Shown here: piece after piece, positions 40-57,050 of the stretch | Layout of the letters: the number at the start of each line of letters is the position of its first letter | Numbering within the stretch: the first letter of the stretch is position 1 | DNA from: Zootoca vivipara | Taxonomy: Eukaryota | Assembly: GCF_963506605.1 (NCBI RefSeq) | Contig: NC_083277.1 | Span: forward strand, 7,812,001 to 7,876,000 | Direction: 5' to 3' | DNA: 64,000 nt | Notes under the pieces: generated by a model | The model's database searches: none | Seen by the model: only the letters and a program-made list of their open reading frames with translations | Told to the model about the DNA's origin: nothing | Made by a program: the position numbers and the translations under genes

Positions 40-2284
40 TGTGACGGGTATAGGACTCCTTTGAGTTGTTTATGACTCAATTAGGAGCCACTGATTACCG
101 CCCGGCACGCTTTCTCTAGCGCCTCTGCTCCGTAGACCCGGGCTGGCAGTAAAACACACAGCAGAGTTCTTCTTCTTCTCACACACAGCGGAAACTTGTA
201 TAGCCATTGGATAAAAAGCCTCTTAAGAACACACAGAGTCCAAGGTGTTCTAATAACTACTGGAGTTTATTTTAAAGAGAAAATAACAAACAACCTGGTG
301 AGAGCGCAGACATCTTGCAACCGTCTCCCAGGCAAAAACGAAACCAACCGATACACATAGAAACACTTCTGGTACATTCTGTAACATGATCTTCCTCAGT
401 GGTCAGGTGCTTCACAGTACACAGTTAACCCCTTCGGTTACTTGTTACTCCTCACACCCCCTCTCACCTGAACACTGGGGATGGCGGGTATCCAAACTTA
501 CCCCAAAACCAACCCTTCACAGAATTCCCCATGCCGTTGGAAACTCAAGGGTTTTGTGAACCCATCTGCTAGGTTCTCCTGGCTTGGACAATACCTCAAC
601 TTTACCAAGCCTACCTGTATGCTTTGACATACGTTTCGGAAGCGGATGTCTAAGTGTTTGGTTCTGGCCTTGAACTGTCCAGACTCTGCCAGTCTCAAAG
701 ATGGTTGATTGTCGCCCCAAACAGTGATGGGCTGGCTACAATCACCCCAGATTTCCTGGACCAAACATCTGTAGTACTCCAACTCAGTGCATGTCGCAGA
801 CAACGCACAGAATTCGGCTTCCGTGGAAGACATTGCTATTAGGCTTTGCCTGCGCGACCGCCAACCAATCAGGGCATTTCCAAACTTGACTACCAAACCA
901 GTCACTGACTTCCTGTCCTCCTGATTGGCCCAATCAGCATCTGCAAAACAAGTGAGTTGTGGCTCACCTTGTGCTGACATTTCCAAACAATACTCTTTGG
1001 TCTCCTGCAAATACCTAAGCACTCTCTTAATGCCATTCCAAGCATGCACGCTAGGTTTCGATGCTTCTCTACTGAGCAAATTGACTGCAAAAGCAATATC
1101 TGGTCTGCTCCATTGTGACAAATACAACAGACTCCCTAGCGCTGACTGAAACACTTCAGGACTCTCAAACGCTACCTTGTCCTTCACTTGTGACTCTTTC
1201 ACAAAGTTTGTCTCCATGGGTGTTCTGACCCCTTTACAGTCAGACATTCTGAACTTCTCCAGCAAATGTTCAATCTTGCCTTTCTGACTGAGCAAAAAAC
1301 TTCCATCCTCAGTTCTGTCTATCTGCACACCTAGATAAACATTCACTGCACCTAGATTCTTGAGTTTGAACCTCTTGCCTAGCTCTTTTGCAAACTTCTG
1401 CACTTGCATCTGGCTCTTTGCTAAGCAGATCAGGTCATCAACATAGACAAGCAACAGTTCTTGCTGTTCTCCTTCACCTCTGAGATACAGACAACTGTCA
1501 GCTAGACTCTTCCTGAAACCTAGGCTCTTCAAAACAGAATCAAGACATGAATTCCAATTTTTAGCGGATTGCTTCAGACCGTAGATCGACTTGTGCAGCT
1601 TCCACACCTGACCTGGCACGTCACTCTCAAACCCTGGAGGAGGCAACATGTACAACTCCTCCTGGAGGTCAGAGTTCAAATAAGCGGTGTCCACATCAAA
1701 GTGGTTGACCACTAGGCCTCTCTGCGCTGCAGTCGCTAAAAGCATCCTGAAAGATTCCGATCTCGAAGTCGGACTAAAGACATCTGTGTAGTGGATTCCT
1801 TTCTTCTGAGTAAAACCTCTAGCCACTAATCTAGCCTTGTACTGAGGCTCTCCAGTCACTGTGGGTTTCAACCTGTAGACCCACCTACAACTGACTGCTT
1901 TCTTACCTTCTGGCAACTGTGATTACCGCCCGGCACGCTTTCTCTAGCGCCTCTGCTCCGTAGACCCGGGCTGGCAGTAAAACACACAGCAGAGTTCTTC
2001 TTCTTCTCACACACAGCGGAAACTTGTATAGCCGTTGGATAAAAAGCCTCTTAAGAACACACAGAGTCCAAGGTGTTCTAATAACTACTGGAGTTTATTT
2101 TAAAGAGAAAATAACAAACAACCTGGTGAGAGCGCAGACATCTTGCGACCGTCTCCCAGGCAAAAACGAAACCAACTGATACACATAGAAACACTTCTGG
2201 TACATTCTGTAACATGATCTTCCTCAGTGGTCAGGTGCTTCACAGTACACAGTTAACCCCTTCGGTTACTTGTTACTCCTCACA
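40..2284 (-). mobile_element. Ty1/Copia LTR retrotransposon, internally deleted (RT-RNaseH only)
   Basis: 5-bp TSD TCAAC at 35-39 and 2285-2289; termini TGTGA...TCACA. The 3' LTR is 40-456 and a partial 5' LTR is 1920-2284. A polypurine tract (GAGAGGGGG on -) abuts 456. Confidence 0.95.
498..1916 (-). CDS. Copia pol fragment: reverse transcriptase plus RNase H (transposon ORF with no ATG start)
   Basis: Copia motifs KARLVARGF, FDVDTAYL, LHKSIYGLKQS, YVDD, SRPDIAFAV, DADWA, SSTEAE, RTKHLDIR and ADGFTKPL; frame open for 472 codons. Confidence 0.92.
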   Translation of the reverse strand: MPEGKKAVSCRWVYRLKPTVTGEPQYKARLVARGFTQKKGIHYTDVFSPTSRSESFRMLLATAAQRGLVVNHFDVDTAYLNSDLQEELYMLPPPGFESDVPGQVWKLHKSIYGLKQSAKNWNSCLDSVLKSLGFRKSLADSCLYLRGEGEQQELLLVYVDDLICLAKSQMQVQKFAKELGKRFKLKNLGAVNVYLGVQIDRTEDGSFLLSQKGKIEHLLEKFRMSDCKGVRTPMETNFVKESQVKDKVAFESPEVFQSALGSLLYLSQWSRPDIAFAVNLLSREASKPSVHAWNGIKRVLRYLQETKEYCLEMSAQGEPQLTCFADADWANQEDRKSVTGLVVKFGNALIGWRSRRQSLIAMSSTEAEFCALSATCTELEYYRCLVQEIWGDCSQPITVWGDNQPSLRLAESGQFKARTKHLDIRFRNVCQSIQVGLVKLRYCPSQENLADGFTKPLSFQRHGEFCEGLVLG

Positions 2285-4540
2285 TCAACAACATAGACTC
2301 GAATAACAGAAATCCAAAGGGGCACAAAACAAGGATGCCCACTATCCCCCTTCCTATTTATACTAGCCCTAGAACCGCTAGCTATCCGAATCCGTGCAGC
2401 CACAGACATCAAAGGAGTGGAAATAAAAGGCAGAACATATAAATTAGGGCTCTTTGCAGATGACCTAATGGTCACAACATCAGACCCCTTAAACACAGCA
2501 ATCTCCCTAACCAGAGAACTCAACACATTTGCAACGGTGTCAGGCCTGCGAGTAAACTTTGCAAAATCAGAAGCCATGTGCTTCAATACTCCTCCCCACA
2601 CCCAGAAAGAACTCGCTAATATCACCAAAATAAAAATCTGTCACACCAAGTTCAGATACCTAGGGGTACAAATAACCAAAAATCTCAACAAATTATACCT
2701 CCACAACTATAAACCCTTGTGGCGACAAATAAACAAGGACCTAAAGAGATGGAACAACATGAATTTCACCCTCTCAGATAAAATGGCAATGATCAAAATG
2801 ATCACTCTCCCAAAATTAACCTACTTATTCCAAACCCTCCCAGTCTGGATCCCCCCAACCCAACTTCGCAGATGGCAGAGAAAACTACACTCCTTCATCT
2901 TCTCACATAAGAAACCAAGAATAAGCACCAAATACCTGCACCTCCCCACCTCACAAGGAGGATGGGGAATCCCTAACATAGAAACATATTACAGGGCCAA
3001 CCAAATTCGACATATAATCCCATATATACTGGAAGACGAGACAAAACAATGGATACACCTAGAGAGAGACACAATTGAAAGTATCTGCACCACAGCATAC
3101 CCACTCCTCCCAAACAAACTAAGAAAGATCCCCACAACACTTAATAGGTACACACAAACCATGTTCAAAGCATGGAAAACAGAAACGGACAAACTATCCC
3201 CAACCACATCCCCACTACTCCCCCTGGTCTACCATCCACTATTCCACCATGCAGCACAAAACATCCAAACAAAAACTTGGCAAACCAAAGGCCTATATCG
3301 CCTACTAGAATTTTATAAAAATAACACACCTCTGACAACACAAGAAATACAAGATAAACTAGAAGACACCCAAATACCCTGGTTAGCACAACACCAATTA
3401 CATGCCCTTTTGAACAAGCCAGCAATAAAACTAGCAGCAACAAGACCCCTGACACCCTTTGAAAATCTCCTCCTAACAACAAAGGGTCACGGCAAAGGGA
3501 TGGTATCTGCAATATATAAAATACTGCTCCAAAATCCCACAAACCCCCCAGACACAATAAAAAAAACAATGGGAAGACGACATAGGCTACGAGATTAACC
3601 CCACTCAATGGACCAGAATGTGGTCTAAACCCCCCTTTATATCCATATCAGCAAAAAGGAAAGAACTCACTCTGAAAACCATCTACAGGTGGTACCTAAC
3701 ACCACAAAAACTAGCACTAATACACCCAGGAACCTCATCAAAATGCTGGAGAGGATGCACCTCAACAGGCACATATTTCCACATGTGGTGGGAATGCCCC
3801 AAAACCCAACAATTCTGGAGAACAACCGTAAGAGAAATAGGTAAAATAACCCAACAAACATTAGAACTTACCCCAGAACTGGCCCTGCTAAACATCTTCC
3901 AGGACAATAACGCCCATCTACATCACAAAGAACTCATAACCCACTTACTCTCAGCAACCAGAAGCATCATAACCAGACACTGGAAAGACCTGTCAGGAGT
4001 AAGCATGGACCAATGGTACCAGACTGTATGGGAAACAGCCCTACTAGAAAAACTAACCAATAAGTTGAAACTGACACGGGGACAAATAGAAGAAGAGGGC
4101 TTCACCCCAATATGGTTCCCCTTCATCACATACACAGGCCAACAAGACAACGACAGAAATCCACCAACAGCATACAAATCAATTTGGCTAACCTGACCCA
4201 GAACACCCACCCACCCCACTCACATAAAACAGACCACCACAGCCAACCACAAAATAAAACTATATCCTAGGCCAACCCCAACAACTCTCACCACCAAAGG
4301 AAAACAAATGCACAACAAGGAACCTATGCAAGCATTGCTGACAACCCCCCCACACACACATTAAGTAAAACAGAAACATTGCCACACCCCCACACCCCCT
4401 TCCCTTATCTACCACTCCCCCCCTTTTCCTCCCCAATGTCTCAACAATTGAAACTGATCTGTAAAAATGTTATGAGAGACATTGTACACGTCTTTGTAAA
4501 CTGAGAAAACCTTCAATAAAAATATTTTTTTTAAAAAAAG

Positions 4541-6081: not shown

Positions 6082-6507
6082 CTTGTACTCCTCAGAAGCT
6101 TCCTCTAGAGGAATCACCTTGTGATTTTCATGTTCCTTTGATTTCTTACACTCCTCACAGATGGGGTCTTCGTGGACTTTGCAGAAGAGCTTCAGCGGCT
6201 CCTGGTGCTCCTCGCAGACTCCTCCTTTTCTTTCTTCTTCTTTCCCTTCTTGAACACTGAGATTCTTGGCTATTTCCACGAACTTTGCCAATTTCCCGCT
6301 GGGGATGAGGCTCCTTCTCTGAACTGTTTTTCTGCAGTGAGGGCAGGAAGCCTCTGCCTCCGATTCTCCTGAGCACTCGATCAGGCAGGATCGGCAGAAG
6401 TTGTGCCCACACTCCGGGCTGATCATTGGATCCTTGAAGTAATCCTGGCAAATGGAGCAAGTGGCTTCATCACGGAGACACTGGATGTAACCCCCAGAAG
6501 CAGCCAT
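6082..6507 (-). CDS. TRIM27/TRIM39-like E3 ligase copy A, exon 1 only (RING + B-box2, 142 codons); downstream exons absent from the window
   Basis: C3HC4 RING (CSICQDYFKDP...CGHNFCRSC...CPHCR) and B-box2 (CEEH...FCKVH...ICEEC...HENH). GT donor at 6081-6080, the same junction as in copies B and C. Confidence 0.88.
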
Positions 6508-9439: not shown

Positions 9440-10383
9440 TCAGGAGATACTGAGGGGAGTTTTATTTCCCCACAGACAAAAGAAAGGGAGGAGGGTCTCT
9501 CCAGAGAACGAGGCTCCTGAGAACGTGTAGAGTTCGGCTCCTGAGTCTGCGTCAGAAAAAGACACACGTCCCCCTTCATAGTCCAGAGTCACCCGGATCC
9601 TCCTGGGCTTCAGGGACAGAAGAGAGAAATCAGGGGAGGTGCGGACCCTGAACTCATCTCCCCTCTTCCACACAGCCCAGAACCCCTCCTCAGGGCATAT
9701 GCAGATGATGCCCTTTCTCTCCACAGACTTCCTGGCGACCCCCACTTCCCACCATTCCCCACTTTCCACATTGACTTCCCAGAAATGTCTCCCTGCTGTG
9801 AATCCCTCACGTCCCAACACACAAGGCCAGTTGCTGAATCTCTCAGGATTGTTGGGCAGGTCTTGCTTTTCGTCTCTATATCTCACACTTTTCCGATCCT
9901 CGGACAGGATGAGCCAGGGATGGGCTGTGTCTGGATCCAGAGTAACATTTGCTGTTGGGGAGAAGATGAGGGAAAGAGAAGATTAGGCAGAGTCATCCAT
10001 GAGACAGAAACAGACATCTTCTTAAAAAAACAACAACCCAAAACCCCAGATTCCCTTTCAGATAATTGGGATTTCTTTGCATCACTTGCAAGACTGAGAC
10101 TCCTTGCAGACTTTCATCAGAATAAATATCTTCCTTGTTGGTTTTTAAATCAGTTTTCTTCACTTATTTGATGTGTATTGTGTCTGCCCTCCTCTCAACC
10201 CAGGCATTTTCTAAGAGGAAAAACCACCCATTAAACCTTTTACTCAGCTCTTCTGTGTTAGTGAAGGAGAAAGAGAGGAGAATTGGAGGCGGCAGGAGAG
10301 GAGAGAAGCTGCTTTCCTCTGACAATCTCTGTGAGAATTGGCCTTTGGGGACCTCTGGGTTGGGGTGGGGGTGGGACCCCCCT

Positions 10384-10428
<45 letters not shown>

Positions 10429-10996
10429 TCGCATTTGCCTACTGCCCTTCATCCATAGGTCTCACGGTGGTTCACAGCATAAAAATACAACACAAAACAA
10501 CATATAGGCATCCCGCTCACTTTCACGGGGGTCATGTTCTGGGCCCACAAGTGAAAATCACACTAAGTGAGGAGCCTGTTTATTCCTGCTCTCCATCTCT
10601 CTCACCCACTTGGTCTCTCCTTGTCTTCCTACCATCTTGGAAGTTTAGGGCTTGCCGTCAGGGAAGAGGAGCAAGGTGGCAGGGCAATTTTACAAAGGAC
10701 TACTTATTCCATGATTCTCTTTTGGATTTAACATATAGCAGAAGACTAGTTCCCTGGGGGAAGGGGGGAATAACTCAAAAGGTTACCAGTTAGGGGCTTA
10801 GACAGTCATGATGCGCAAGTGTAGAGTTGCTGTATTCTGAAGAGCAAAAAAGAGGACACATTTGCCAACTTCTACTCTTAACCATGGATCGCTATGACGA
10901 CACTCATTTTAAATACCCCTACTCTATATAGACTTTCAAAGCTGTGATATATTGCTAGTAGCAATGTTCTGAACTTTCAATAATAATAATAATACC

Positions 10997-11037
<41 letters not shown>

Positions 11038-24198: not shown

Positions 24199-27100
24199 TG
24201 TTGTTGTTGTTTAGTCGTTTAGTCGTGTCCGACTCTTCGTGACCCCATGGACCATAGCACGCCAGGCACTCCTGTCTTGCACTGCCTCCCGCAGTTTGGT
24301 CAAACTCATGTTCATAGCTTCGAGAACACTGTCCAACCATCTCGTCCTCTGTCGTCCCCTTCTCCTAGTGCCCTCAATCTTTCCCAACATCAGGGTCTTT
24401 TCCAAGGATTCTTCTCTTCTCATGAGGTGGCCAAAGTATTGGAGCCTCAGCTTCATGATCTGTCCTTCCAGGGAGCACTCAGGGCTGATTTCCTGAAGAA
24501 TGGATAGGTTTGATCTTCTTGCAGTCCATGGGACTCTCAAGAGTCTCCTCCAGCACCATAATTCAAAAGCATCAATTCTTCGGCGATCAGCCTTCTTTAT
24601 GGTCCAGCTCTCACTTCCATACATCACTACTGGGAAAACCATAGCTTTAACTATACGGACCTTTGTCGGCAAGGTGATGTCTCTGCTTTTTAAGATGCTG
24701 TCTAGGTTTGTCATTGCTTTTCTCCCAAGAAGCAGGCGTCTTTTAATTTCGTGACTGCTGTCACCATCTGCAGTGATCAAGGAGCCCAAGAAGGTGAAAT
24801 CTCTCACTGCCTCCATTTCTTCCCCTTCTATTTGCCAGGAGGTGATGGGACCAGTGGCCATGATCTTGGTTTTTTTGATGTTGAGCTTCAGACCATATTT
24901 TGCGCTCTCCTCTTTCACCCTCATTAAAAGGTTCTTTAATTCCTCCTCGCTTTCTGCCATCAAGGTTGTGTCATCTGCATATCTGAGGTTGTTGATATTT
25001 CTTCCAGCAATCTTAATTCCGGCTTGGGATTCATCTAGTCCAGCCTTTCGCATGATGAATTCTGCATATAAGTTAAATAAGCAGGGAGACAATATACAAC
25101 CTTGTCGTACTCCTTTCCCAATTTTGAACCACTCAGTTGTTCCATATCCAGTTCTGACTGTAGCTTCTTGTCCCACATAGAGATTTCTCAGGAGACAGAT
25201 GAGGTGATCAGGCACTCCCATTTCTTTAAGAACTTGCCATAGTTTGCTGTGGTCGACACAGTCAAAGGCTTTTGCATAGTCAATGAAGCAGAAGTAGACG
25301 TTTTTCTGGAACTCTCTAGCTTTCTCCATAGTCCAGCGCATGTTTGCTATTTGGTCTCTGGTTCCTCTGCCTTTTCGAAATCCAGCTTGCACTTCTGGGA
25401 GTTCTCGGTCCACATACTGCCTAAGCCTGCCTTGTAGAATTTTAAGCATAACCTTGCTAGCGTGTGAAATGAGCGCAATTGTGCGGTAGTTGGAGCATTC
25501 TTTGGCACTGCCCTTCTTTGGAATTGGGATGTAGACTGATCTTCTCCAATCCTCTGGCCATTGCTGAGTTTTCCAAACTTGCTGGCATATTGGGTGTAGC
25601 ACCTTAACAGCATCATCTTTTAAAATTTTAAATAGTTCAGCTGGAATATCATCACTTCCACTGGCCTTGTTATTAGCAGTGCTTTCTAAGGCCCATTTGA
25701 CTTCACTCTCCAAGATGTCTGGCTCAAGGTCAGCAACCACACTATCTGGGGTGTACGAGACCTCCATATCTTTCTGGTATAATTCCTCTGTGTATTCTTG
25801 CCACCTCTTCTTGATGTCTTCTGCTTCTGTTAGGTCCTTACCACTTTTGTCCTTGATTATGGTAATCTTTGTACGAAATGTTCCTTTCATGTCTCCAATT
25901 TTCTTGAACAGATCTCTGGTTTTCCCCATTCTATTGTTTTCCTCTATTTCTTTGCATTGCTCATTTAAGAAGACCCTCTTGTCTCTCCTTGCTGTTTTTT
26001 GGAAATCTGCATTCAGTTTCCTGTATCTTTCCCTATCTCCCTTGCATTTTGCTTGCCTCCTCTCCTCCGCTATTTGTAAGGCCTCGTTGGACAGCCATTT
26101 TGCTTTCTTGCATTTCCTTTTCCTTGGGATGGTTTTCGTTGCTGCCTCCTGTATAATGTTACGAGCCTCCATCCATAGTTCTTCAGGCACTCTGTCCACC
26201 AAATCTAAATCCTTAAACCTGTTCCTCACTTCCACTGTGTATTCATAAGGGATTTGATTCAGATTGTATCTTACTGGCCCAGTGGTTTTTCCTACTTTCT
26301 TCAGTTTAAGCTGGAATTTTGCTATAAGAAGCTGATGATCTGAGTTACAGTCAGCTCCAGGTCTTGTTTTTGCTGACTGTATAGAGCTTCTCCATCTTTG
26401 GCTGCAGAGAATATAATCAATCTGATTTCGATGCTGCCCATTTGGTGATATCCATGTGTAGAGTCGTCTCTTGTGTTGTTGGAAGAGAGTGTTTGTGATG
26501 ACCAGCTTGTTCTCTTGACAGAACTCTATTAGCCTCTGCCCTGCTTCATTTTGAACTCCAAGGCCAAACTTGCCAGTTGTTCCTTTTATCTCTTGATTCC
26601 CTACTTTAGCATTCCAATCCCCTGTAATGAGAAGAACATCCTTCTTTGGTGTCATTTCTAGAAGGTGTTGTAGGTCTTCATAAAATTGGTCAATTTCACT
26701 TTCTTCAGCTCCGGTAGTTGGTGCATAAACTTGGATTACTGTGATGTTAAAAGGTCTGCCTTGGATTCGTATCGAGATCATTCTGTCATTTTTGAGATTG
26801 CATCCCATTACAGCTTTTGCCACTCTTTTGTTGACTATGAGGGCCACTCCATTTCTACTACGGGATTCTTGCCCACAGTAGTAGATATGATAGTCACCCG
26901 AACTGAATTCGCCCATTCCCTTCCATTTTAGTTCACTGATGCCCAGGATGTCGATATTTATTCTTGTCATCTCATTTTTGACCACATCCAGCTTACCTCC
27001 ACTCATGGTTCTTACATTCCAGGTTCCTATGCAATATTTTTCTTTACAGCATCGGACTTTCCTTTCGCTTCCAGGCATATCCGCAACTGAGCATCCTTTC

Positions 27101-27434
27101 GGCTTTGGCCCAGCCGCTTCATCAGCTCTGAATCTACTTGTACTTGTCCTCCGCTCTTCCTCAGTAGCATGTTGGACGCCTTCCGACCTGAGGGGCTCAT
27201 CTTCCAGCGTCATAACTTTTATATGCCTGTTGTCTTTGTCCATGGAGTTTTCTTGGCAGGGATACTGGAGTGGCTTGCCAGTTCCTTCTCCAGGTGGATC
27301 ACGTTTAGTCAAAACTCTCCACTATGACCTGTCCATCTTGGGTGGCCCTGCATGGCATAGCTCATAGCTTCTCTGAGTTATTCAAGCCCCTTCGCCACGA
27401 CAAGGCATTGATCCATGAAGGCATTGATCCATGA
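24199..27434 (-). mobile_element. Full-length BovB (RTE-clade LINE)
   Basis: 9-bp TSD AGAGCCTGT (24190-24198, 27435-27443); (CAA)n tail; BovB-type 5' end cttcatggatcaatgccttgtcgtggcgaagggg. Confidence 0.96.
24211..27243 (-). CDS. BovB endonuclease-reverse transcriptase, uninterrupted (1010 aa from the first ATG)
   Basis: APE endonuclease motifs GTWNVR, LGISE, GDWNAK, IDYIL, SDH; RT motifs FIDYAKAFD, GVRQGCILSP, YADD. Confidence 0.95.
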   Translation of the reverse strand: MDKDNRHIKVMTLEDEPLRSEGVQHATEEERRTSTSRFRADEAAGPKPKGCSVADMPGSERKVRCCKEKYCIGTWNVRTMSGGKLDVVKNEMTRINIDILGISELKWKGMGEFSSGDYHIYYCGQESRSRNGVALIVNKRVAKAVMGCNLKNDRMISIRIQGRPFNITVIQVYAPTTGAEESEIDQFYEDLQHLLEMTPKKDVLLITGDWNAKVGNQEIKGTTGKFGLGVQNEAGQRLIEFCQENKLVITNTLFQQHKRRLYTWISPNGQHRNQIDYILCSQRWRSSIQSAKTRPGADCNSDHQLLIAKFQLKLKKVGKTTGPVRYNLNQIPYEYTVEVRNRFKDLDLVDRVPEELWMEARNIIQEAATKTIPRKRKCKKAKWLSNEALQIAEERRQAKCKGDRERYRKLNADFQKTARRDKRVFLNEQCKEIEENNRMGKTRDLFKKIGDMKGTFRTKITIIKDKSGKDLTEAEDIKKRWQEYTEELYQKDMEVSYTPDSVVADLEPDILESEVKWALESTANNKASGSDDIPAELFKILKDDAVKVLHPICQQVWKTQQWPEDWRRSVYIPIPKKGSAKECSNYRTIALISHASKVMLKILQGRLRQYVDRELPEVQAGFRKGRGTRDQIANMRWTMEKAREFQKNVYFCFIDYAKAFDCVDHSKLWQVLKEMGVPDHLICLLRNLYVGQEATVRTGYGTTEWFKIGKGVRQGCILSPCLFNLYAEFIMRKAGLDESQAGIKIAGRNINNLRYADDTTLMAESEEELKNLLMRVKEESAKYGLKLNIKKTKIMATGPITSWQIEGEEMEAVRDFTFLGSLITADGDSSHEIKRRLLLGRKAMTNLDSILKSRDITLPTKVRIVKAMVFPVVMYGSESWTIKKADRRRIDAFELWCWRRLLRVPWTARRSNLSILQEISPECSLEGQIMKLRLQYFGHLMRREESLEKTLMLGKIEGTRRRGRQRTRWLDSVLEAMNMSLTKLREAVQDRSAWRAMVHGVTKSRTRLND

Positions 27435-31973: not shown

Positions 31974-34900
31974 TCAGGAGATACTGAGGGGGGTTTGAAG
32001 GTCATTCAGACGAAAGAAAGGGAGGAGGGTCTCTCCAGAGAACGAGGCTCCTGAGAACGTGTAGAGTTCGGCTCCTGAGTCAGCGTCAGAAAAAGACACA
32101 CGTCCCCCTTCATAGTCCAGAGTCACCCGGATCCTCCTGGGCTTCTCATTCAGGGACAGAGGAGAGGAAACAGGGGAGGGGAGGGCCACGTACTCATCTC
32201 CCCAATTCTCCAAAGCCCAGACCCCATCCTCGGGCCTTAAGGAGAAGAAGTAGCTCTTTCTCTTCACAGACTTCCTGGCGACCCCCACATCCCAAAATGC
32301 CCCACTTCCCACATTGACTTCCCAGAAATGTCTGCCTGCTGTGAATCCCTCACGTCCCAACACACAAGGCCAGTTGCTGAATCTCTCAGGATTGTTGGGC
32401 AGGTCTTGCTTTTCGTCTCTATATCTCACACTTTTCCGATCCTCGGACAGGATGAGCCAGGGATGGGCTGTGTCTGGATCCAGAGTCACATTTGCTGTTG
32501 GGAAGAAGATGAGGGAAAGAGAAGATTAGGCAGAGTCAGCCAAGAGACAGAAACAGACATCTTCTTAAAAAACAACAACAAAAACCCCAGATTCCCTTTC
32601 AGATCAATGGGATTTCTTTGCATCACATGCAAGACTCCTCCTTGCAGACTTTCATCAGAATAAATATTTTCCTTGTTGGTTTTTAAAATGGTTTTCTTCA
32701 CTTTCTTATATTCAGTGTGTATTGTGCCTGCCCTCCTCTCTCTCTCTCTCTCTTTTTTGTAGAGAAACTGTCACATCATTTATTTATTTTAAATCGTTCC
32801 GGTTTCATGGAATATGCATTCCAGAAGAATCAGTTATTTTTTAAAAAAATAAATCTTTATTTCAATTCTTTAAAATATTACATAAAAAAGAAAATTAAAT
32901 ACATAAAGAAATAATAATCGATTCGATCATATATACCATTCAAAAACATATAACTGAGAAACAAAAAATGAAAAAATAAACAAAACAATAATCAAAGAGA
33001 AACAAATAATACTCCAAAATTCCTAAATTTCAATCCAATAGCATCACCAAATAATATAAACATTTACAAATAACAGAAAAAAGAAAAAAGAAAAATAGCA
33101 CAAAAAATAAAAAAGATCTTAACATTTTCCTATTGTTTGTGCACCACTTTCCTTTATTTAACTTCTCGTCTTGCTTTATCTAAATTACTATTTACACATG
33201 TTCTCCGTATTTCCCTGCATATCTTTCAATCTAAACAAATAAGCAGATCAATATTTATCTCTTCTTTTTTCAAATAGCCCTCAACACTTTTCTGTGGGAA
33301 TTGGCCTTTGGGGACCTCTGGGTTGGGGTGGGGGATAAGGACCCCCTGTAGTAGTAGTAAGTAGTAGTAGTAACAATAATATCACACTTGCCTACTGCCC
33401 TTCATCCATAGGTGTCAGGGTGGTTAACAGCATAAAAATATAACACAAAACAACACATAGGCGTCCCCACACTTTCGCGGGGGTCATGTTTTGGGCCCAC
33501 AAATGAAAATCACACTAAGTGGGGAGCCTGTTTATTCCTGCTCTCCATCTCTCTCACCCACTTGGTCTCTCCTTGCCTTCCTACCATCTTGGAAGTTTAA
33601 GGCTTGCCACCAGGGAAGAGGAGGCAGGTGGCAGGGCAATTTTACAAAGGACTGCTTATTCCATGCTTCTCTTTTGGATTGAATATATACCATAAGTGTG
33701 CACAGAACAATTTATTAAACTGTTAAACATCTGCATATGGACTCTCCTTAAGGGCAGGGGGATGTTAACTCTTGCCCTCCCAGACTCCTCCTCAAAGATC
33801 TTGTAGCTGAACCAGCGTCCTTTTAGTTCAGCCACAAGAAAAGGGTTGTTGCTAGCTTAAGATGTTGCTCTGTTGCAATACTCTGCTCTAGGCTAGGTGG
33901 CTTACATCTGAATCTAATGCACTGGAAAAATTTTCTAGTCTGAGAAAAAGAGGACACGTGGCAACCAGTCCTGAAAAAGGTCACATGGAAAAACAACCCA
34001 ACTCTAGGCAGGAATGAAACTCTTCCCTACTCAGTCTGATCCTTCTGGGTTATTTATCTCTCCCCCTTCTGCATCTTCAAGTCCACCCTCTCTGCCTTTG
34101 TGGTACAAACAGCAGGGACTAGAGTCAAGTTGTACAGAAGAGACTCTTTACGCCCCCCATGAAACACTAGTCCCCCCCTCCTGTGAATTGGGGTCTCCAT
34201 GTAAAATTTAACTCTCTGAAGATTTCTGAATGGCTGAACATCTGAGGAAGCAAAAATGCAATAGCTAAAAAATAATAAATATTTTTTACAAAACATCACC
34301 ATAACATAGCGTCTGTTGTTTCCTTATTTCAAGCAAAAGATGAAATCATAGAAGAAATAATTGCAAAAACAACAACTGTAGGCCTGTGTAGTGATGTTAA
34401 ATATTCTCCAAAAGATTATTCTCAATAATTTAATATCACTAGGCATAAGGAAATAACTAACTTGTTTAGCTGTAATTCTTGCATTGCAGGGGGTTGGACT
34501 AGATGATCTTTGTGATCCTTTCAAACTCTGCTATTCCATGATTCCATGGGAAAATCAGAAATGGTAAAACATACTAGAAAATGGCGGAATCCAATCATTC
34601 AAAATCCACAAATGAAATGCATAGCTGCCAAGTTATCCCTTTTTTTAAGGGAAATTCCCTTATGCTGAATAGGCTTCCTCGTGAGAAAAGGGAAAACTTG
34701 GCAGCTATGGAAATGGGGACCTGTACTGGAGGGCTGGAGGAAGGTTTAACATCTGCCCCAAGTAAACTGGTGGGGAAAAGCTGTTGAAACCGGAATTTCC
34801 AAGCATGCCGAAGTTTGGGGATGCCTGGACTAGATGATCCTTGGGATCCTTTCAAACTCTGCTATTCCATGATTTCAGAAATGGTAAACCATACTAGAAA

Positions 34901-37900
34901 ATGGGAAAATACAATCATTCAAAATCCATGAATAAAATGGGGACCTGTACTGGAGGAAGGTTTAACATCTGCCCCAAGTAAACTGGTGGGGGGGAAAGAA
35001 TTTCCAAGTACTGTATGCTGACAAACCAGATTGCAGAGGAAGAATCGGCAGAGTTTTGCACTGTAATTCCAAGGGTCTCGTGCAATGGGAAGTCCTCCCT
35101 TGTGGAATGGGGCCGATCTCAAAAGAATTGTGGGGACTCTCAGGCGACTGGGATGGCTGAAGCACCAGAAATGGCTGGTGAGGTTGAAACTGAGGAAGAG
35201 GGGGCTCTGGGAAACCAGCCTGGCAGGAGGTGGAGGAGGGACTGGGTGCTTGCGGGTGCCCCTTTTAACACACTTCACAAGCGGGAAATTCAAGCAAATC
35301 TTGAGAAGCCCCAAAAAGAACCTTTCCAGATTGTGTGGAGGGGAAACAAAATGCAAGGGAGGTTCCATTTGAATCAGAACATTGTAATGATCGAGCAGGA
35401 TTCTCCTTAAGGGCTTTTATAAGATATTTTAAGGCTCTGAGGCTTTTCCCCAGAATCAAGCAATATATAAATTTTATGAAAGAAAGCAAAATCTATTAAA
35501 TCAAGGGGGAAACCAGCATAATAGTTTATAGGCAGGAATGGAACACAAGACTGGCATGCAGGTTCTTCGTGGGGACAAGCTCTGCCTGCAATCCAAGCCT
35601 TCAAACCCTCTCCAGGTTCATTCATGGGACAGACAAAGAACCCAAACACCACTAGAGGACTGTTACCCACAGTTACGCCATTGATGGGGGTCCCAAAGTC
35701 TGCAGAACAGACGGTTCAACACCCATGAAATATCAGCCCCCATCCCTCCTATGAAATTGTTCCCCCTGGAAATTTACCTTTCTGAATCTGTTTTCTGAAT
35801 AACAGAGCATCTGAGGAAGCAAAAAAGATATAAAGTGTAAGGGCAACACTCTTCCACCTGAAATAAATCTCTACACAAAAGTAACACTTCATAACGTGGC
35901 ATCCTTAAATTCAAGTGTGGTCAAACCTCGGTTTTCGATCGTCTCTGTTACTGTACGTTTTGCGAGAGCCGCGCCTCAGAAATTGACCGTTTTGGAAGTC
36001 GAACATCCTTCTGGAGTAGATTACATTCGACTTCCAAGGCTTGACTGTACAATTATTAAATAGTACAGTGGAACCTCAGAAGCCGACCACCTTTGAACTC
36101 AAACGCTTCAGCTCCCGAACTATAGAAAAATGTAAGTGATTGTTTTTCGGAAGCTAAACATCTTGCACGGCTTCCGCAGCTTCTGATTGGCTGCAGGAAG
36201 CTTCTTCAGCCAATCGGAAGCCACACCTTGGTTCTTGAACCATTTCAGGAGTTGAACCGACTCCTAGAATGAATTAAATAAAAGAACCGAGGTACAACTG
36301 TAGAAAAAATAATTAAAAACAAGAAAATAATAGGAAGAATCTATGAAAATAACTAAAGCTTTAAAACTCAGCAATCATAAAGCACGCTTACAAATAATAG
36401 AATAAAAATATTCAGCATGAATCCTGATGGTCTCTGAACTTTGTCCCTGAAATTGGGCTCTACATTCTTGGACTGGAGGGGAGGCAAAGCAATAGGAATC
36501 CTGTAAAAGGAGGCAGAGGGGAGATGGAGGCAGCCTTAACATCTTCCCCAAGCAAAGTAGTGGGGTAAATTATTAAAACCAAAATTGTGAAACATAAGGA
36601 GAAATAAAGGTTGATGAGGAAGGCTTGGCCGAGGTCTCATGCAAAAGGAAGCCCTTCCTCACAAACCTTTTAAAAAAATCTTTCAGATTGTTACCAAGCA
36701 TAATTGTGCCCTTTGGGGCTCATGTGCTCTTGCTTCCATCTTCCATGTGGAAACTCAGGAGATCTTGAAGGCTGAAGCCCTAGATAGGGCAGCTGCAGGG
36801 GGACGTCTGAGGAGGAGACGGCTCAGGCCTTGGCTCCATTGCTGAGAAACAAACCTGAGCAGGAGACAGGGGGTTGGACTGGATGGCCCTTGTGGTCTCT
36901 TCCAACTCTATGATTCTATGACAGAGGGGGAACTGGGGGCTTCTTAATGCCCTTTGACTCCATTCAGAGCAGGAGAACCTCCAAAAGGACAACCCCAGAT
37001 TGTGTAGACTGGTAACCAAAAGGAAAAGGAGGTTCTGTATAATTGACGAGAGATGCACATGGGAGGAAAAAATCCTAACTTTGCTTTCTTTACAAGCTCC
37101 AGCGTCACAATGTACATGGGCCATTCTGGGGGACAGGAAATGAAGGCTGGAGCACCGAGAAGGAAGGTATCCTTGGGTTCCTCAATTCCATGCAATAAGA
37201 GCCTGGCATGTTCAGTTCTGAAGGAAGAATACAATTCCCAGTGTGAAACCCTGGCAGCCATTTTTCATTACCTTTCCATTGTTTCATTGCATCCTCCACA
37301 AGGTGATTTAGATCACAGGATTCCAAGATCCTGTTCCTCAGTTCTGGAGGGAAAGGCAGTGGCTTCTCTGGACTCTCTCTTTTCTCATACCTGGTGAAAA
37401 GAAAAACAAATTATACACATTGCAAAAGTAAAACCAAACCTCACAAAGGAAATGGCACTAATTCATTGGGGAGAATTGGGGTGCTACAAGTTCCAAAGAG
37501 GGGGTCCTGTTTTACCTGGGAAACCAAACAGATTATTATTATTATAAATTCTTATTATACCTGTGAGATGCTACAGGGAGTGAGTTCTAGGGCTGTCTTA
37601 AGCATTCCCCGTTGCTTGTTGATTGAAAATGCCCCGTGTATCTTAAGCACGTGCAGCGCGATCCTAAGCAGGTTTGAATGCAAGAGTGAAACAAAACTCT
37701 GAAGCAAGCTTCCCCCCCGCCCCTTGCCGGCAATAGTCATTTACACTGCCCTAGGAAAGGCCTCCGTTGAACCCAGTGGGACTTACTTCAGAGTAAAGTT
37801 GGTCGCAAGGGATCAGGGCCCTGCCTGCCTTGGGCTTCAAAAGAACTCCTAGATGTCTCCCCAACCTGATCCCAGAGTTTGATGTACCCTTCATATCCTA

Positions 37901-40900
37901 AAGGGGATTGCCTTTCGGGTCTGGGATGAATTTTGAGGGAAAGAGCAAATTTATCCCCGCCTTGAGCTATGAGCTATACTTCACTCAATGGGAGGGGAGG
38001 GGAGGGAACGGAAGGGAAGGGAATGTCTCGGGGGCGAAATTGACCATATGCTTAAAATGAGTGGACGTGGATGGCCGTTGTGTGTTGAGTGTTTGTGCAT
38101 CACTTCCACCAGGGCTCAGGTAGGAGCTAAAGTCTGTAATTTTCTCCTCCGTCGCACCATTAAAAACAGGTTGCTTTTTTCAATTAAGAGCTGCCTTCAG
38201 CCCCAGTCAGTTCTCCTAATGACAATACATTATATTTTCACTGTTCTCTCCCCCCCCCCAACTACACGCACACGCACAACCCCCAACTCCGAAAGAATGG
38301 GAAATCCTATGTTTTCATTAGACGTGATTAGCGAGAAAGTCCAAGAGGGAGGGAAATGATTTAAGGGGGGAGGGTTCTTGTCTGAACTAAATACCGGGAC
38401 CTTCTTCTTGTTTATTACTGTATTATTAAACCACCACGCTTTTAAATAAATTGGGATTTCGTACAGAAAGGTGGAGGGGCGAGGAGGCTGGTCGATGTGG
38501 CTTCCTTCAGATTAAATGCAGACCACAGCGATGGTCATTTAACCGACCTGATTGGATCTGGTGTTGGGGGTGAGGTGCGAGAGAATGATGATGATTTTTT
38601 AAAAGCAACTTTCCTCCACTCTTAGCTGCTGCCGGCAGCTTTGCGGGGCTGGAGGAGGCGGGCAGCGGCTGGAAGGCGGTTCCTCCAGTGGGGAAGAGGC
38701 GGAGGCTCCAGACACGGCGCCCAGCCTCTGCCTCTTCCCTGGCGCCCATGCCTTGGTGGCCACGGCAGGCGGAGGCTTTGGGCACAGCACTGCTTTGGCG
38801 CAGTGGACGAGGGCGGAGAGCTTGGCACTGTGGATCCCCGCGCCACTAGCCTCTATGGCTAAGACGCCCCTGGAGCACCATGTTTGAGGTTCTTGCATCA
38901 CGGCCTCATGGAGGGATGCTAATGAGAATGAGCCAGATCCACTTACCTCTGAAAGGTTCTTCTCATATCCTAGAGGGGGAAAGAGAAGGGAATTCACTGC
39001 ACACCACAGGCCACACTAGGAAGACCCTCTCAGACCCTGGAGTGGACGAACAGCCTGGCCCTCGGATGTCAGTCTGCCTGACACATGCCAAGGTTTTGGG
39101 TAGGGATGGTGGAATCAGCCAGTTTTGGTTTCTCACAGCTTTTATTTTTTCAACCTGAAATTATCAATTTTTCCAATATCAAGTTCTCCACATTTCCACA
39201 TCAGTTTGCAATTCTTGTTTAAAATCCTTATGAAAATCCACCAGCATTTAAGGGAATTTCACATTTGTGGATTCAATAGAAGATTCCAACCCATCTCATG
39301 TCTTAGATTATAATTTATTACAGTAATTTGAATCCAGTTTGCACTGTGCAATTAAGATGTAAGTAAGCCTACAGGATAATCCTACCAAGGAACTGTCCCA
39401 AATTGTCTTCCATAGAAGTCCCCAAATATCAAATTCTATTCTCCAACTGGAAATAAAAAAGCACCTGCAGCATAAAATGCCTCCAAAGGTGTAATAAAAC
39501 AGCTCAGTGTTTATTTGGGCGCATCCACACTTCTGCTTCTCCTGTGCCCAGAAAACACGGGTCCAAGTGGTTTTGCCTTTGCCCTGCCACTTTCCCTCAG
39601 GAAAAACCTGCTCCTTAGTGCAACATCAAAGCAAACGTCAATCTGGAGAAAACCTGGCTGATGTTTGCTCTCATTCAGCAGTAAACTGCGGCTTTTCCTG
39701 GCGGAAAGGGGTGGGACAAGCAGCAGTCTGGATGAGTCCCTCTGTCTTGCTCTTTGATCACTGTGACTGAGCACCATTTTGGGCCGATCTGGATCCATTG
39801 TGAAGGTGATCAACCCAGAAGTTGTGGAGGGAACAGGAAGAGAAGCTTGGTCAAGAGACTGGCTCATGTCGGAAGGAGGCCTGGATGCATCTTTGGCGAA
39901 GCCCAGCCCAGGGTAGGAAGGCAGCATTGCCAAGCAGGAAGGAATTTCGAGACAAATCATCAGCAAAGAGCAGAAAACCACCTCCAGTTCCATCAAGACC
40001 ACAGAAGAATCTCTGGTCTGCATTCAGGTGAGTTAAGCATCCCAGGTCTCTTGGGTCTTCCTGTCCATTACCGGTACAAACCTGAGTAGAGGCTCCATCA
40101 ACTGAGCCCCTGAACTCCTTGTATACATGAAAGGGGCACAGAAAGGATGGCAGGCAGCCTTTTCCTGGAGCCTTGGGCTGTTCCTGCCACCGTCTTACCT
40201 GCAGGAGTTCACTCACTGGCTGCTGACCCTTTTCCTCCATCTCCTGGATTATCTTCTCAAGGGAGGAGAGTTTCCTGGAGAGTCTGGCCAGCTGCTCATC
40301 CCTTCTCCCTGCAATCTCCTTCTCCACCTCTTCCACACAATTCAGCCGTTGTTTTTCTTCTTCTTCCAGGAACTGGCGGAGTTCTTTGAACTTCTCCACA
40401 GTCTCCAGCTTCTCCGTTTCTGCTAATTTCTGCAAAAAAAGAGGAGGTCTGAGTGTGGACGATGGTCAGCCTTCAAAACAGCAGGAAGAAAATGATGAGA
40501 ATTCCACAGGGAGGGCACTTCTGATTTTTCAGAGACATGAAACGTCCAGTGGCTAAAGAAGTAAACATGTATTCTGTGGGGTGGCCCTCTCCATTGCTCT
40601 TTCTGTTGACTTCTATTCGCAGAGGGCTACTGCCTAAAGCAGGTGTAGGCAATCAAAGGCCCAGGGGCTGGATGCGGCCCAATCACATTATCAATCCGGC
40701 CTGCAGACAGTCTGGGAATCAGCGTTTTTTTACATGAGTAAAATGTGTCCTTTTATTTAAAATGCATCTCTGGGTTATTTGTGGGGCCTGCCTGGTGTTT
40801 TTACATGAGTAGAAATGTGTGCTTTTATTTAAAATTCATTTATGGGTTATTTGTGGGGCATAGGAATTCATTCATTCCCCTCCCCAAAAAAAAACATAGT

Positions 40901-43047
40901 CCAGCCTACCACATGGTCTGAGGGACGGTGGACCGGCCCACAGCTGAGAAAGGTTGCTGACCCCGGACAAGGAGCTTTTTCCCTAGCCACGGGTATTTCC
41001 TGCATGTTTTGGGGCATGGCATAAGCAGAGTTCATAGTTGTCCAGAGAACATCCATGGACATAAAACACCCCTCAGTTCAAAGTGGAACCATTAAGGTGT
41101 AGGAAGGCAACAGAAACAGAGGAGGATGAGGAGGAGAAAGTGTAGAGTTTATCCCCATAGCTCCCCTGTTTCCTTTAAAGGTTCAAAATGCCCAGAGTTT
41201 CCTAAAAATGAACAAGAGTGCACATTTAGAAAGACAATTCTTTAGTAATATTTATGGTAAATCCGGATTTGGACTGATTTGCTTCCACCCTGGCCTGGCG
41301 GAGGATTTGTGGAATATCTGAAGGAATATTATGAAAATATGAACACACCAGTAGGTTTACTTTAAAAAATACAACAAATATATGTATAGCCGTTGTCAAA
41401 AATGTATATTTGAAATTGATATATGAGAAAGACAGGCAAGAAAGAGTAAAGCACCGAAACCTGAAAGTTGGAAAAATAAAACCAAGAGAGAGGAAAGAGG
41501 AAGTCAAGTTTGAAAGAACAAGTTTAGAGGAAAAGACTATATAGGAAGAAAAGGAGAGGTAAATAAGGTACGACACATGGTATTATTTGTAAAGTATCTT
41601 TATTTGAGATTTTTTTTTCTGTATGAAACCAATTTTTATTTGTATATCAAAATATCTGTACAATAAATAAAAGCAATAAAAATGGGGGGGGGGAGATTTG
41701 CTTCCACCCTCTCAGCTCACAAGAGTTCAGGCTTCTCCTTGACTACTTTTCACATAATGAATGACAAGGGGAAATAAATTCAATTTAGCTTCATTCAAAG
41801 GTGAACTTACCTAATTTGCTATTGCTGAATAAATATGGAGACCAAAACAGAGCAATCCTATGAAATTCACACCTCTTATATTTTCAAGGTTGACCCAGCC
41901 AGGTAAATCCATTTATGAGGGTAAAGTACAGATCAAAGTATTTATACATTTTCAGAATAATAAATTAATAAACAGAAATAGGGAGAAGCTGAAATGGGCA
42001 GATTTCCCCATCCCTCATCAGTACTGACTCGATTCTTCAAGTGCTTGTTCCCTCACTAGTAACAATACAGACACTTACCAGGAGGTCTTTGCTTTCCTTG
42101 TCCAGGTCTGCTTGATAGGCCAGAATTTCCTCTCTCTCTTTCCTCAGAATCTCCAGACGGCGACAGATCTCTCCCTAAAGAGAAAAGGGAAAACTCAGGT
42201 TTGATTGAGACACACAGAGACAAGATGAATAGTATGCGGGCTTTGCTATGCTGTAGTAGCAAAGTACTGGAGGAAATAAAAGTCCAGAGGTTTCCAACCT
42301 TTTTGGGTCCACGACTCCCTGAACCAGCTACCTTTTTTCTATGGGGCTCAGGGACCCAGTTAGTCCCCTCTTGCTTACAGACTTCTACATAGTCTTTGCA
42401 GATGCTACTCAGGGATATCAAGGGAGATCCCTTTGTCCCCCTGGCAGAAAGATTTCAACTCCCTCCTCTCAGTCATCCCAGGAGCCCCCAGGCTTCCCCT
42501 TGGCTGCTTTTTACATAATAAACAACCACCAATTCATGTCATGCCTACTTTGGACCTGAGAATTAAAAATAAAACCTCCCAAGAAGAATCCACAGCTATT
42601 TCTCATCCTAAAGATCCAGGGATCTCCTACCTTGTATTCCTCGAAAGCCTCCTCCAAAGGAATCACCTTGTGATTTTCATGTTCCTTTGATTTGTCACAC
42701 ACCAGGCAGATGGGGGCTTCGTGGACTTTGCAGAAAAGCTTCAGGGGCTCCTGGTGATCTTCGCAGACTCCTCCTTCTCCCTTTCCCTCTTGAAGGCTGA
42801 GATTCTGGGCTATTTCTACCACATTAGCCAGTTGCCGGTTGGGGATGAGACCCCTTCTCCGGACTCTTTGTCTGCACTGAGGGCAGGAAGCCTCTGCCTC
42901 CGATTCCTCCCAGCACTGGATCAGGCAGGATCGGCAGAAGTTGTGCCCACACTCTGGGATGGTCACTGGATCCTTGAAGTAATCCCGGCAGATGCAGCAC
43001 GTGGCTTCATCACGGAGACGCTGCAATTGACCCCCTGCAGCAGCCAT
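31974..43047 (-). CDS. TRIM27/TRIM39-like E3 ubiquitin ligase copy C (RING, B-box2, coiled coil, PRY/SPRY); 479 aa
   Basis: Exons 43047-42631 (417 nt), 42174-42079 (96), 40429-40199 (231), 38969-38947 (23), 37390-37272 (119), 35810-35778 (33), 32494-31974 (521). Canonical splice sites, consistent phases, no stops. Confidence 0.92.
34620..34709. mobile_element. 90-bp MITE (inverted second copy at 54723-54812)
   Basis: TIR CATAGCTGCCAAGTT. The 54723 copy has an 8-bp TSD CAACTATC, consistent with hAT. Confidence 0.8.
36066..36300. mobile_element. Degenerate Tigger/pogo-like MITE; related copies near 58137-58343 and 59580-59822
   Basis: ta-cagtggaacctc ... gaggtacaactg-ta termini. Confidence 0.65.
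41292..41694 (+). mobile_element. Short L1-type 3' fragment
   Basis: 16-bp TSD GATTTGCTTCCACCCT (41276-41291, 41695-41710); ORF2-end-like codons followed by an A-rich UTR; absent from copy B. Confidence 0.75.
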
Positions 43048-47188: not shown

Positions 47189-47217
47189 GAACTTGGAAAG
47201 GGGTCACCCACATTCCA

Positions 47218-47340
47218 AGGCATGACTCTTGATCTCAGGGTCATGGGTTCGAGTTGGGCAAAAGATCCCTGCATTGCAAGGGGTTGGACTAGATGACCCT
47301 CGGGGTCCTTTCCAACTCTACAATTATATGAATTCTATGC
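47218..47340 (+). mobile_element. tRNA-Lys-derived SINE with CR1-like tail
   Basis: gcatgactcttgatctcagggtcatgggttcgag head, then ggggttggactagatgaccct...ttccaactctac tail. Confidence 0.75.
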
Positions 47341-48540
47341 GGGGAGATACAATTCAGAAAGACGGGGTGCCTGCTACTCTCAGGAACTTTGGAAGCTGCC
47401 TTATATGCCTTATAACGAGTCGGGCTACTGGCTTAGTACTGGCAGCAGCTCTCCAGAGTTTCAGGCAGGGAGTCCATCTCTCCCAGCCCTGGCGATTGTA
47501 CTTGGGAATTTTCTGCATGCTAAGCAGCACATGCTCTACCCATCAGGCAGCACTTTCTGAACATGCACCTCATTTATTGCACCCCATGCACCAACCTCCC
47601 GGCAATGCAAAAAAATAAATCTCAGCCAGGCAGCATTTTAGCTGCAAAGCCAGGCAGGAAATGCATGGGAGGCTGTCCTCTGTCCCGCCCCGCTCCTCCC
47701 CTCACATTTTTTCTTGCCTCGCTGGGAACTGAGCCGTGGCTGTTGATTTAACCATTAACCAGCCACCCACCTCTATATTGCCAGCACGGACTGGCAGCAG
47801 CTCCCTAGTTTTGTAGCCCTACCTAGAGATGCCGGGGATGCATGCAAAGCAGACGCTCTGCCACTGATCTATGCCCCTTGCTGCTTTCCTGCAGCAATAA
47901 AAACCATTGCAAAAATAGCTCACTGCTTGGGAGGCTGCTGGTCCTAATGCAGCTACTGTAAATTCTTCTGTTAGCTTCTGAGTCCGGTCTTCAAGCTCCG
48001 TTTCCTAGAGCGGCCCAGGACATTTGGATGGGGGAAGTAAACAATGAGGACAACTTCCTGGGTCTAAGCCCCTCCCTCCTCCTGGCATTAGACTCCTGCA
48101 GAAGACAGACAGGTGGGTGATTTAAGCCATAAGCTGAAAGCTAGGATCATTCATAGTGGCGTGGTGGAATGGAATTAATTCATGCAATGCAATGCAAAAT
48201 AGGGAGGGGAAACCATTTAAAAATAGTAACCAGGCTCAGATTCATTCTTCCAGAGTCAACCTTTCTCCAGATCCACTTGTTCAAAAATCTGAGAGTGATC
48301 TGAGAGAGATTTCAATACTGCACTTGAGAAATTAGCGCGAATTAAAACCAGGGGATTTTGAATAAATTTGAGTATACTGTACTATCACTAAAGGCAAAAA
48401 TTAAAATAAAAAGTCCCAGAGCGGCCACAGATCTAAAAATGTCAGTAACCTCTACTACTGCGTAGGAGGCAAACAATTCATCAGGAAACTTCTTACTGAT
48501 CTGTAACCTATTTTATTTCTCTCCGACTTGAGCAGGGGAA

Positions 48541-54066
<5,526 letters not shown>

Positions 54067-56947: not shown

Positions 56948-57050
56948 TTTTCCGGTTTCCGGTTTCCCGCCGGGTCAGAGCATTGAGGTCCGTTTCCGGG
57001 AGCGATATCGCCAGTTGCAGAGCGCGGGAAGAGCGGTTGTGCCCAGGTAG
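56948..57050 (+). promoter_or_regulatory. Probable promoter and non-coding first exon of the downstream SCAN gene
   Basis: Tandem ETS-type TTCCGG motifs (ttttccggtttccggtttcccg), local CpG enrichment, and tandem donors cag|GTAG|GTGAGT at 57047 and 57051. Confidence 0.6.

Follow-up and report, generated by a model that had tools for sequence, protein, structure and literature searches.

Results

Two intact TRIM genes and part of a third

The window, by which we mean the whole 64-kb stretch of Zootoca vivipara DNA analyzed here (7.81-7.88 Mb of contig C2), contains two complete minus-strand TRIM genes, termed copies B and C, together with the first exon of a third, copy A, whose PRY/SPRY exon (L008) lies approximately 11 kb to the left of the window (Table 1). 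Pfam matches to zf-C3HC4_4 and zf-B_box exceed the cut-off in the first exons of all three copies, a TRIM_CC match (PF25600) is present on one exon of C only, slightly below the cut-off of 30 (27.9 bits, E=2.5e-6), and the PRY/SPRY domain forms the single C-terminal last exon of both B and C with its reading frame open. Both complete copies are intact TRIM genes of class IV, encoding a RING, a B-box, a predicted coiled coil and a PRY/SPRY domain, and the intact RING suggests that their products may act as E3 ligases. The copy C protein corresponds to P0047 (XP_060126764.1), named 'zinc finger protein RFP-like'. Among RefSeq records, XP_060126899.1 (P0001; LOC118080222, 1061 aa) fuses B with A, joining window positions 9440-9450 to 6507, and a second record of LOC118080222 (P0122) fuses C with B. 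As copy B has its own stop codon, these fused models are likely annotation artefacts; similar doubled lengths are common among the database matches, the best of which is a Zootoca vivipara sequence with 100% identity.

Table 1. Positions of the TRIM copies, the segments of their last exons and the neighboring elements in the window.
Feature	Position	Strand	Details
Copia-type LTR retrotransposon piece	92..2284		two 365-nt LTRs, 99.2% identical
RVT_2 frame of the Copia-type piece	501..1922	-
LINE element	2297..4538	+	presumably L1-like
Copy A, first exon (RING + B-box)	6082..6507	-	Pfam
TRIM gene copy B	9440..21873	-	8 coding exons, 486 aa, open frame, own stop codon
Copy B exons	21873-21457, 20474-20379, 18529-18299, 14645-14623, 13766-13648, 12789-12757, 11666-11637, 9951-9440	-	exon walk, GT-AG boundaries
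Copy B, PRY/SPRY (B30.2) exon	9440..9951	-	PF13765 E=4e-29, PF00622 E=6e-22
Copy B codons 159-164, C-terminal variable loop	9461..9478	-	CLWGNK (RLNDLQ in C); 5/6 codons selected
Copy B codons 115-158, scaffold block	9479..9610	-	conserved family-wide; median nucleotide distance from B to paralogs ~5%
Copy B codons 105-127, identical to copy A (L008)	9572..9640	-	includes 6-nt deletion private to A and B
Copy B codons 63-114, variable block	9611..9766	-	holds positions aligned to TRIM21 D355, L370, L371, W381, W383
Copy B codons 4-62, block private to B and C	9767..9943	-	1 silent difference in 177 nt; holds hypervariable PRY/v1 codons
LINE element	24214..27321	-	open 1036-aa frame; taken to be RTE/BovB-like
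TRIM gene copy C	31974..43047	-	7 coding exons in annotated isoform, 479 aa, open frame
Copy C exons	43047-42631, 42174-42079, 40429-40199, 38969-38947, 37390-37272, 35810-35778, 32494-31974	-
Copy C, PRY/SPRY exon	31974..32494	-	shared block 32310-32486; variable block 32145-32309; C-terminal loop 31995-32012
SCAN-domain and C2H2 zinc-finger frames	45164..59303		three SCAN-domain frames

The TRIM copies share the window with retroelements and with frames of other families. The Copia-type piece is likely a recent, internally deleted insertion, and no target-site duplication was found at the ends tried. The SCAN-domain and C2H2 zinc-finger frames lie next to the TRIM copies, an arrangement that also occurs in the mammalian extended MHC class I region.

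Transcription was assessed in three stranded RNA runs from one study carrying the same species label, approximately 6% of each being read. Spliced family reads on the expected strand span the junctions 20474/21457, 12789/13648 and 9951/11637; no reads from the same portions of the three runs cover the B-specific block at 9631-9693, and the evidence for transcription therefore applies to the family and not to B itself. In iguana cells, many 'RFP-like' TRIM transcripts, belonging to a clade that may differ from the lizard array, are induced by interferon and some are not, according to the accessible part of PMC12262214.

A large TRIM array adjacent to the MHC

A genome search for the PRY/SPRY domain returned at least 138 matches among 150 scored candidates, and the best 47 are full-length, retain an open frame and are at least 63% identical to B. 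All but one of these 47 map to contig C2 between 6.34 and 10.90 Mb, the exception being a retrocopy on C4. With 20 of 24 MHC class I domain matches located at 4.66-6.14 Mb of C2, the array begins approximately 0.2 Mb from the class I genes, and B and C belong to a group of at least 46 close class IV TRIM relatives arrayed next to the MHC. In a FastTree phylogeny of 154 domains, picked by motif from the best 120 of 1524 matches, the close clade consists of lacertid sequences only; among the matches sampled, B and C have no one-to-one ortholog and the best identity to either from another species is 81%.

Several members depart from the standard gene structure. Broken copies with stops or split frames occur among the matches. 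The C4 retrocopy (L075/L017; C4:35253279-35254748, plus strand) is intronless, with an intact 490-aa frame followed downstream by AATAAA and then an A-rich run, and is possibly a retrogene. Two pairs of PRY/SPRY exons, L040/L041 (C2:8836885, 8839708) and L004/L038 (C2:8963440, 8959985), are each separated by approximately 3 kb in which no first exon was found, the former pair being a 2.6-kb tandem repeat with 99.3% identity and the members of the latter having plainly diverged. Such pairs might provide a single gene with two pockets through alternative terminal exons, or the exons might be orphans. A more distant TRIM subarray (L051-L070), approximately 52-64% identical to B and with loops variable in length, occupies C2 11.8-12.25 Mb.

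Copies B and C differ in blocks of the last exon

A codon alignment of the B and C last exons, with residues numbered as in B, spans 170 aligned codons and reveals 30 substitutions and two in-frame indels. Their distribution is blockwise: residues 1-62 are identical in protein, with two silent changes in 186 nt, and residues 115-158 are likewise identical, with one silent change, while residues 63-114 contain 25 amino-acid differences and residues 159-164 another five. The middle block accumulated 29 nonsynonymous and one synonymous nucleotide changes (dN 0.29, dS 0.03) as well as both indels, namely an inserted codon in C and the loss of two codons from B, and its excess of nonsynonymous changes is significant (Fisher p=0.0014, or 0.0004 with kappa 2.6). 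Over the whole exon the counts are 37.5 nonsynonymous and 5.5 synonymous (p=0.06, or 0.02 with kappa 2.6), and restricting the comparison to codons with a single nucleotide change leaves 21 nonsynonymous to 1 synonymous (p=0.01-0.02). The block boundaries were picked after inspection of the data; the family-wide tests described below are independent of them.

These counts bear out what the first-pass annotation of this DNA had read from the letters alone, namely an identical N-terminal stretch of approximately 57 residues including v1, an identical later block with few synonymous changes, and some 25-30 substitutions plus in-frame indels in the middle and the C-terminal loop; the peptide strings it quoted are also correct. 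Its placement of the variation in 'loops' needs amending, as 16 of the 30 differing residues sit in beta-strands of the model of the B domain, so that the term 'binding face' fits better. An assembly artefact is an unlikely cause of the pattern, given that a contig of DNA run X2, which may be the source of the assembly, covers 9613-9739 with no differences and that the second RefSeq record (P0122) carries both domains unchanged (170/170 and 173/173). Across seven domains compared between two RefSeq record sets, the difference was zero or one residue.

The PRY/SPRY exon evolves under positive selection

Codon site models were fitted to 47 PRY/SPRY sequences over 172 columns with custom code that applies naive empirical Bayes, obtains its branch lengths by scaling the M0 tree and includes no multi-hit model; its M0 log-likelihood agrees with that of IQ-TREE. 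The data set excludes the more distant matches as well as L048-L050, which show aberrant ends, a truncation or a split frame. The PRY/SPRY codons are under positive selection, with dN/dS of approximately 4.5 at approximately 22% of codons, a conclusion in which we place very high confidence. The single-ratio omega is 1.21, M2a is favored over M1a by 2dL=625 with 22% of sites at omega 4.66, M8 is favored over M8a by 2dL=572, and 35 of 172 columns are selected at posterior >0.95. Each third of the exon analyzed on its own tree yields a significant result (2dL 175, 215 and 134). The RING/B-box exon, analyzed as a control in 26 paralogs, has an omega of 0.45 with 2dL of only 3.3 (M2a-M1a) and 5.5 (M8-M8a); this set comprises 26 of 30 loci after exclusion of L091 (stop), L094 (missed by the motif filter) and L096 and L097 (distant group). 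The omega>1 of the lizard array is concentrated on the predicted B30.2 binding surface and not on the RING/B-box, as in TRIM5 and finTRIM arrays.

In all seven simulations without selection and with heavy mosaicism, 2dL reached 5-55, omega was at most 2.1 and no more than six sites were called. A null 2dL of at most 55 against the observed 625 indicates that recombination inflates the test and accounts for less than one tenth of the signal. An analysis that omitted A, B and C called 33 sites, and these coincide with 19 of the 30 B/C differences (p=1e-9). On the other side of the balance, pN and pS over the whole exon have nearly equal medians across all 1081 pairs (0.156 and 0.149), and median pS at selected codons is somewhat raised (0.21 versus 0.14). 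In the B/C variable block, synonymous divergence is 1 in 36.5 sites against a family median of 0.185. With 29 amino-acid-changing changes against one silent, the middle block shows the reverse of the raised synonymous divergence with dN/dS at or below one that the first-pass annotation had set against its own proposal of strong diversifying selection, and that proposal is upheld by the site models over the family, which place the signal on the predicted binding face.

The same annotation had described the diversity as concentrated outside v1, and here the family tells otherwise. For the v1-v4 labels we adopt what we take to be the TRIM5alpha nomenclature. PRY/v1 codons 13, 25, 28, 29, 31 and 41-43 are among the most variable in the family and are selected family-wide (posterior 0.97-1.0; 2dL=175 for the segment alone), and the identity of B and C in this region is peculiar to that pair. 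The sparing of v1 is not a family property, whether it arose in B and C by conversion or by purifying selection. In the accessible part of PMC2657112, variable loop 1 sits between strands 2 and 3.

Selected positions coincide with the TRIM21 ligand pocket

The model of the B domain (pLDDT 92) superimposes on TRIM21 and TRIM7 with a TM score of 0.95 at 42-46% sequence identity. TRIM21 contacts antibody Fc through W299, D355, L370, L371, W381, W383, F450 and D452, as given in the accessible part of PMC4670481, and by alignment these correspond to B positions 13, 69, 84, 85, 95, 97, 162 and 164; the offset was confirmed for W299, D355, W381 and W383, which fall on the correct letters, with F450 and D452 placed by an ungapped extension of 2-4 residues. 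Seven of these eight positions are selected at >0.95 (hypergeometric p=6e-5), the remaining one, B95, reaching 0.86, and B and C carry different residues at seven of the eight. At the positions of W299, D355, W381, W383, F450 and D452, copy B has W, E, W, R, G and K, and copy C has W, D, E, W, D and Q. These positions are hypervariable within the family, the D355 position taking seven states and the W381 position six in 47 copies. Along the strands, selected residues alternate (67/69, 95/97 and 100/102/104), the arrangement that would be expected if they lined one exposed face of the modeled domain. We also considered whether B or C might be TRIM21, the cytosolic Fc receptor, and rejected this identity as the conserved set of Fc contacts is absent from both.

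The last exon has a mosaic ancestry

Segments of the PRY/SPRY exon have separate histories. Separate trees for three contiguous segments give a better fit than any of the 60 permuted partitions (-7955 versus a mean of -8171, sd 33), and mosaic ancestry within this exon is family-wide. The first-pass annotation had offered diversifying selection or patchwork conversion as alternatives; selection and mosaic ancestry are each present, and the 'or' does not hold. In a GENECONV-like scan, 9 of 1081 pairs are globally significant, all within codons 108-158, where purifying selection confounds the test. A further set of loci at C2 10.78-10.89 Mb includes L043, which pairs with L044 in codons 1-62 (100/99) and with L034 in codons 63-170 (96/97), L033 being the fourth member of the group; this is a second supported case of a mosaic.

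The B-C shared PRY/v1 block is quite likely a gene-conversion tract. In codons 1-62, B differs from C at 2 of 186 nt and from the next paralog at 13-15, and codons 4-53 are identical in just 3 of 1081 pairs, the other two being near-identical duplicates. The B-C identical run is significant pairwise (0 of 300 permutations), with a global p of 0.17. Flanking aligned blocks of B and C differ at 551 of 6830 positions (8.1%). Copy B further shares codons 105-127 with copy A, an identity found in only 2 of 1081 pairs (A-B and one near-identical tandem duplicate), and this is likely a second conversion tract. A distant paralog was rejected as the source of the middle block, since the block contains one silent change where 6.7 would be expected from a typical paralog (p=0.009).

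The identity of B and C over codons 1-62 might instead reflect sister copies whose PRY/v1 segment stayed under purifying selection while the SPRY half diversified, a history that we regard as rather doubtful and under which the placement of variation outside v1 would apply to this one pair. It would agree with an AU test on codons 63-170, which does not reject a B+C clade (p=0.43), with a silent divergence that is even along the exon (2/42 in the shared block, not lower than the 3.5/81 of the rest), with a whole-exon pS of 0.045 that ranks among the lowest 0.3% of pairs, and with the silent nature of both differences in the block. It is at odds, however, with the upstream intron, where four paralogs are nearer to B than C is, with the private deletion block common to B and A, and with the family-wide conflict among segment trees; moreover, family site rates predict 6.7-12 amino-acid-changing differences in the shared block, against none observed.

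Discussion

Class IV TRIM proteins dimerize, bind ligands through the PRY/SPRY domain, cluster, activate the RING and bring about ubiquitin-dependent restriction or signaling. We propose that B and C probably act in the cytosol as receptors for foreign proteins, most likely those of viruses, and that they belong to an MHC-adjacent array under pocket selection with probable conversion between neighbors. Each copy would dimerize via its coiled coil and hold its ligand in a TRIM21/TRIM7-type PRY/SPRY pocket, clustering of copies on a multimeric target would activate the RING, and ubiquitin would tag either the target or the TRIM itself, leading to restriction or signaling. Selected point substitutions would create new pockets and conversion would transfer pocket segments between copies, such that B may be read as a mosaic with a PRY/v1 half as in C, codons 105-127 as in A and a pocket floor of its own.

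We favor a pathogen ligand as the driver of selection, with fair confidence. The same selection could be imposed by variable host molecules or endogenous elements, such as antibody constant regions, MHC-region proteins or proteins of retrotransposons and endogenous retroviruses, and the match of fold and selected positions to the TRIM21 Fc pocket, the proximity of MHC class I and the young-looking retroelements within the window would all fit this reading. We nonetheless judge it unlikely: a few host ligands would not obviously drive at least 46 distinct pockets, and the TRIM21 residues are not kept, as the seven and six states at the D355 and W381 positions demonstrate. Still less probable is that the surface changes serve to escape pathogen antagonists of TRIMs that regulate host interferon signaling. 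Duck MHC-linked TRIM205 and TRIM206 modulate RIG-I signaling, as described in the accessible part of PMC10445537, yet this function leaves the keeping of at least 46 copies unexplained and, with selection falling on residues that line the predicted pocket of the domain itself, a constant host partner would be difficult to retain.

A neutral patchwork, in which blocks arrived from distant paralogs or constraint was relaxed on redundant copies, would account for the broken copies of the array and draws on a mosaicism that is real and that inflates site tests. It is nevertheless largely refuted and in our view very improbable, given the scarcity of silent changes in the middle block (1 against 6.7 expected, p=0.009), an observed 2dL 11 times the largest null value, the continuing constraint on the scaffold and the RING exon, and the coincidence of selected sites with a known ligand pocket.

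Among known systems, TRIM5alpha is the classic positively selected case; its v1 is long, and the lizard loops are short, as in TRIM21 and TRIM7. With the latter two the B domain shares its fold, and its selected sites coincide with the TRIM21 Fc pocket, but the TRIM21 contact residues are not kept as a set. The zebrafish finTRIMs resemble the lizard array in being a large lineage-specific array with selection on the B30.2 domain and recombination: the accessible part of PMC2657112 reports 16-18% of B30.2 sites at omega ~2.6-3.0, in loops matching those of TRIM21 and TRIM5alpha, and detects recombination. That expansion arose independently in fish according to the same part, and its selection is concentrated in variable loop 1, whereas in the lizard array omega is ~4.5 across all pocket segments.

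Among reptiles, expansions of MHC-linked class IV TRIMs have been described: the MHC and TRIM25 loci of the fence lizard hold 77 TRIM genes and those of a turtle 226, many lacking orthologs, and the study terms these genes uncharacterized and places them outside its main tree (PMC10445537, accessible part). The lizard array is of the same kind in its MHC location and its lineage-specific paralogs; the accessible part of that study contains no selection or conversion analysis and no lacertid. Our literature search, whose coverage mostly left out subscription journals, found no selection or conversion study of the lacertid array, and in the main text of PMC9679377, on the Anolis MHC, 'TRIM' occurs zero times.

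The harbiTRIMs are antiviral squamate class IV TRIMs that restrict flaviviruses via the capsid (10.1101/2025.06.23.661133; Boys, Quinlan, Elde). The common-lizard hTRIM XP_060126836.1 matches, by eye, domain L103 (C2 17.70 Mb), which neighbors a Harbinger transposase frame that is intact and lies at 17.656 Mb, with the harbiTRIM locus spanning 17.66-17.74 Mb; other DDE_Tnp_4 matches lie at C2 8.23 and 10.02 Mb, where the named hTRIMs are not found. Both groups are class IV TRIMs of the same species and contig, present as tandem copies with recombination within PRY/SPRY. The harbiTRIMs nonetheless form a separate clade and locus, 9.8 Mb from the window and 43-46% identical to B/C, and number five against at least 46 copies in the MHC-adjacent array; their authors stress conversion over site-wise positive selection, whereas both are present in the array. 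We therefore rejected B and C as harbiTRIMs, given that level of identity and a separate locus away from the endogenized Harbinger element and the nearby BTN and RACK1; the resemblance in presumed mode of action stands. The accessions of B and C have zero occurrences in the accessible parts of seven supplements to version 1 of the preprint.

The lizard array adds a new and strong example to an established category, that of lineage-specific TRIM arrays with an arms-race pattern. Its evolutionary pattern is already familiar from finTRIM and TRIM5; its novel aspects are how large the array is, how strong the signal is, the correspondence to a TRIM21-type pocket and the segments that A, B and C have in common. 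In the harbiTRIM preprint, TRIMs of the MHC locus are portrayed as old and of limited recombination, a picture at odds with this array, which is young, mosaic and next to MHC class I. A small neighboring reptile TRIM locus recently yielded potent antivirals, and the MHC-adjacent array is approximately 10 times larger; its ~35 candidate specificity residues, together with its natural chimeras, mean that expression screens could draw candidates from it directly. We tentatively raise the further possibility that lacertids carry a germline repertoire of approximately 50 cytosolic TRIM receptors by the MHC, with pocket segments hypermutated by selection and shuffled as cassettes. If so, the array would constitute a combinatorial set of intracellular sensors for viruses, far exceeding the harbiTRIM locus in size, and copies B, C and A would amount to domain swaps made by nature, in which the contribution of the PRY/v1 half to specificity is separated from that of the SPRY pocket floor.
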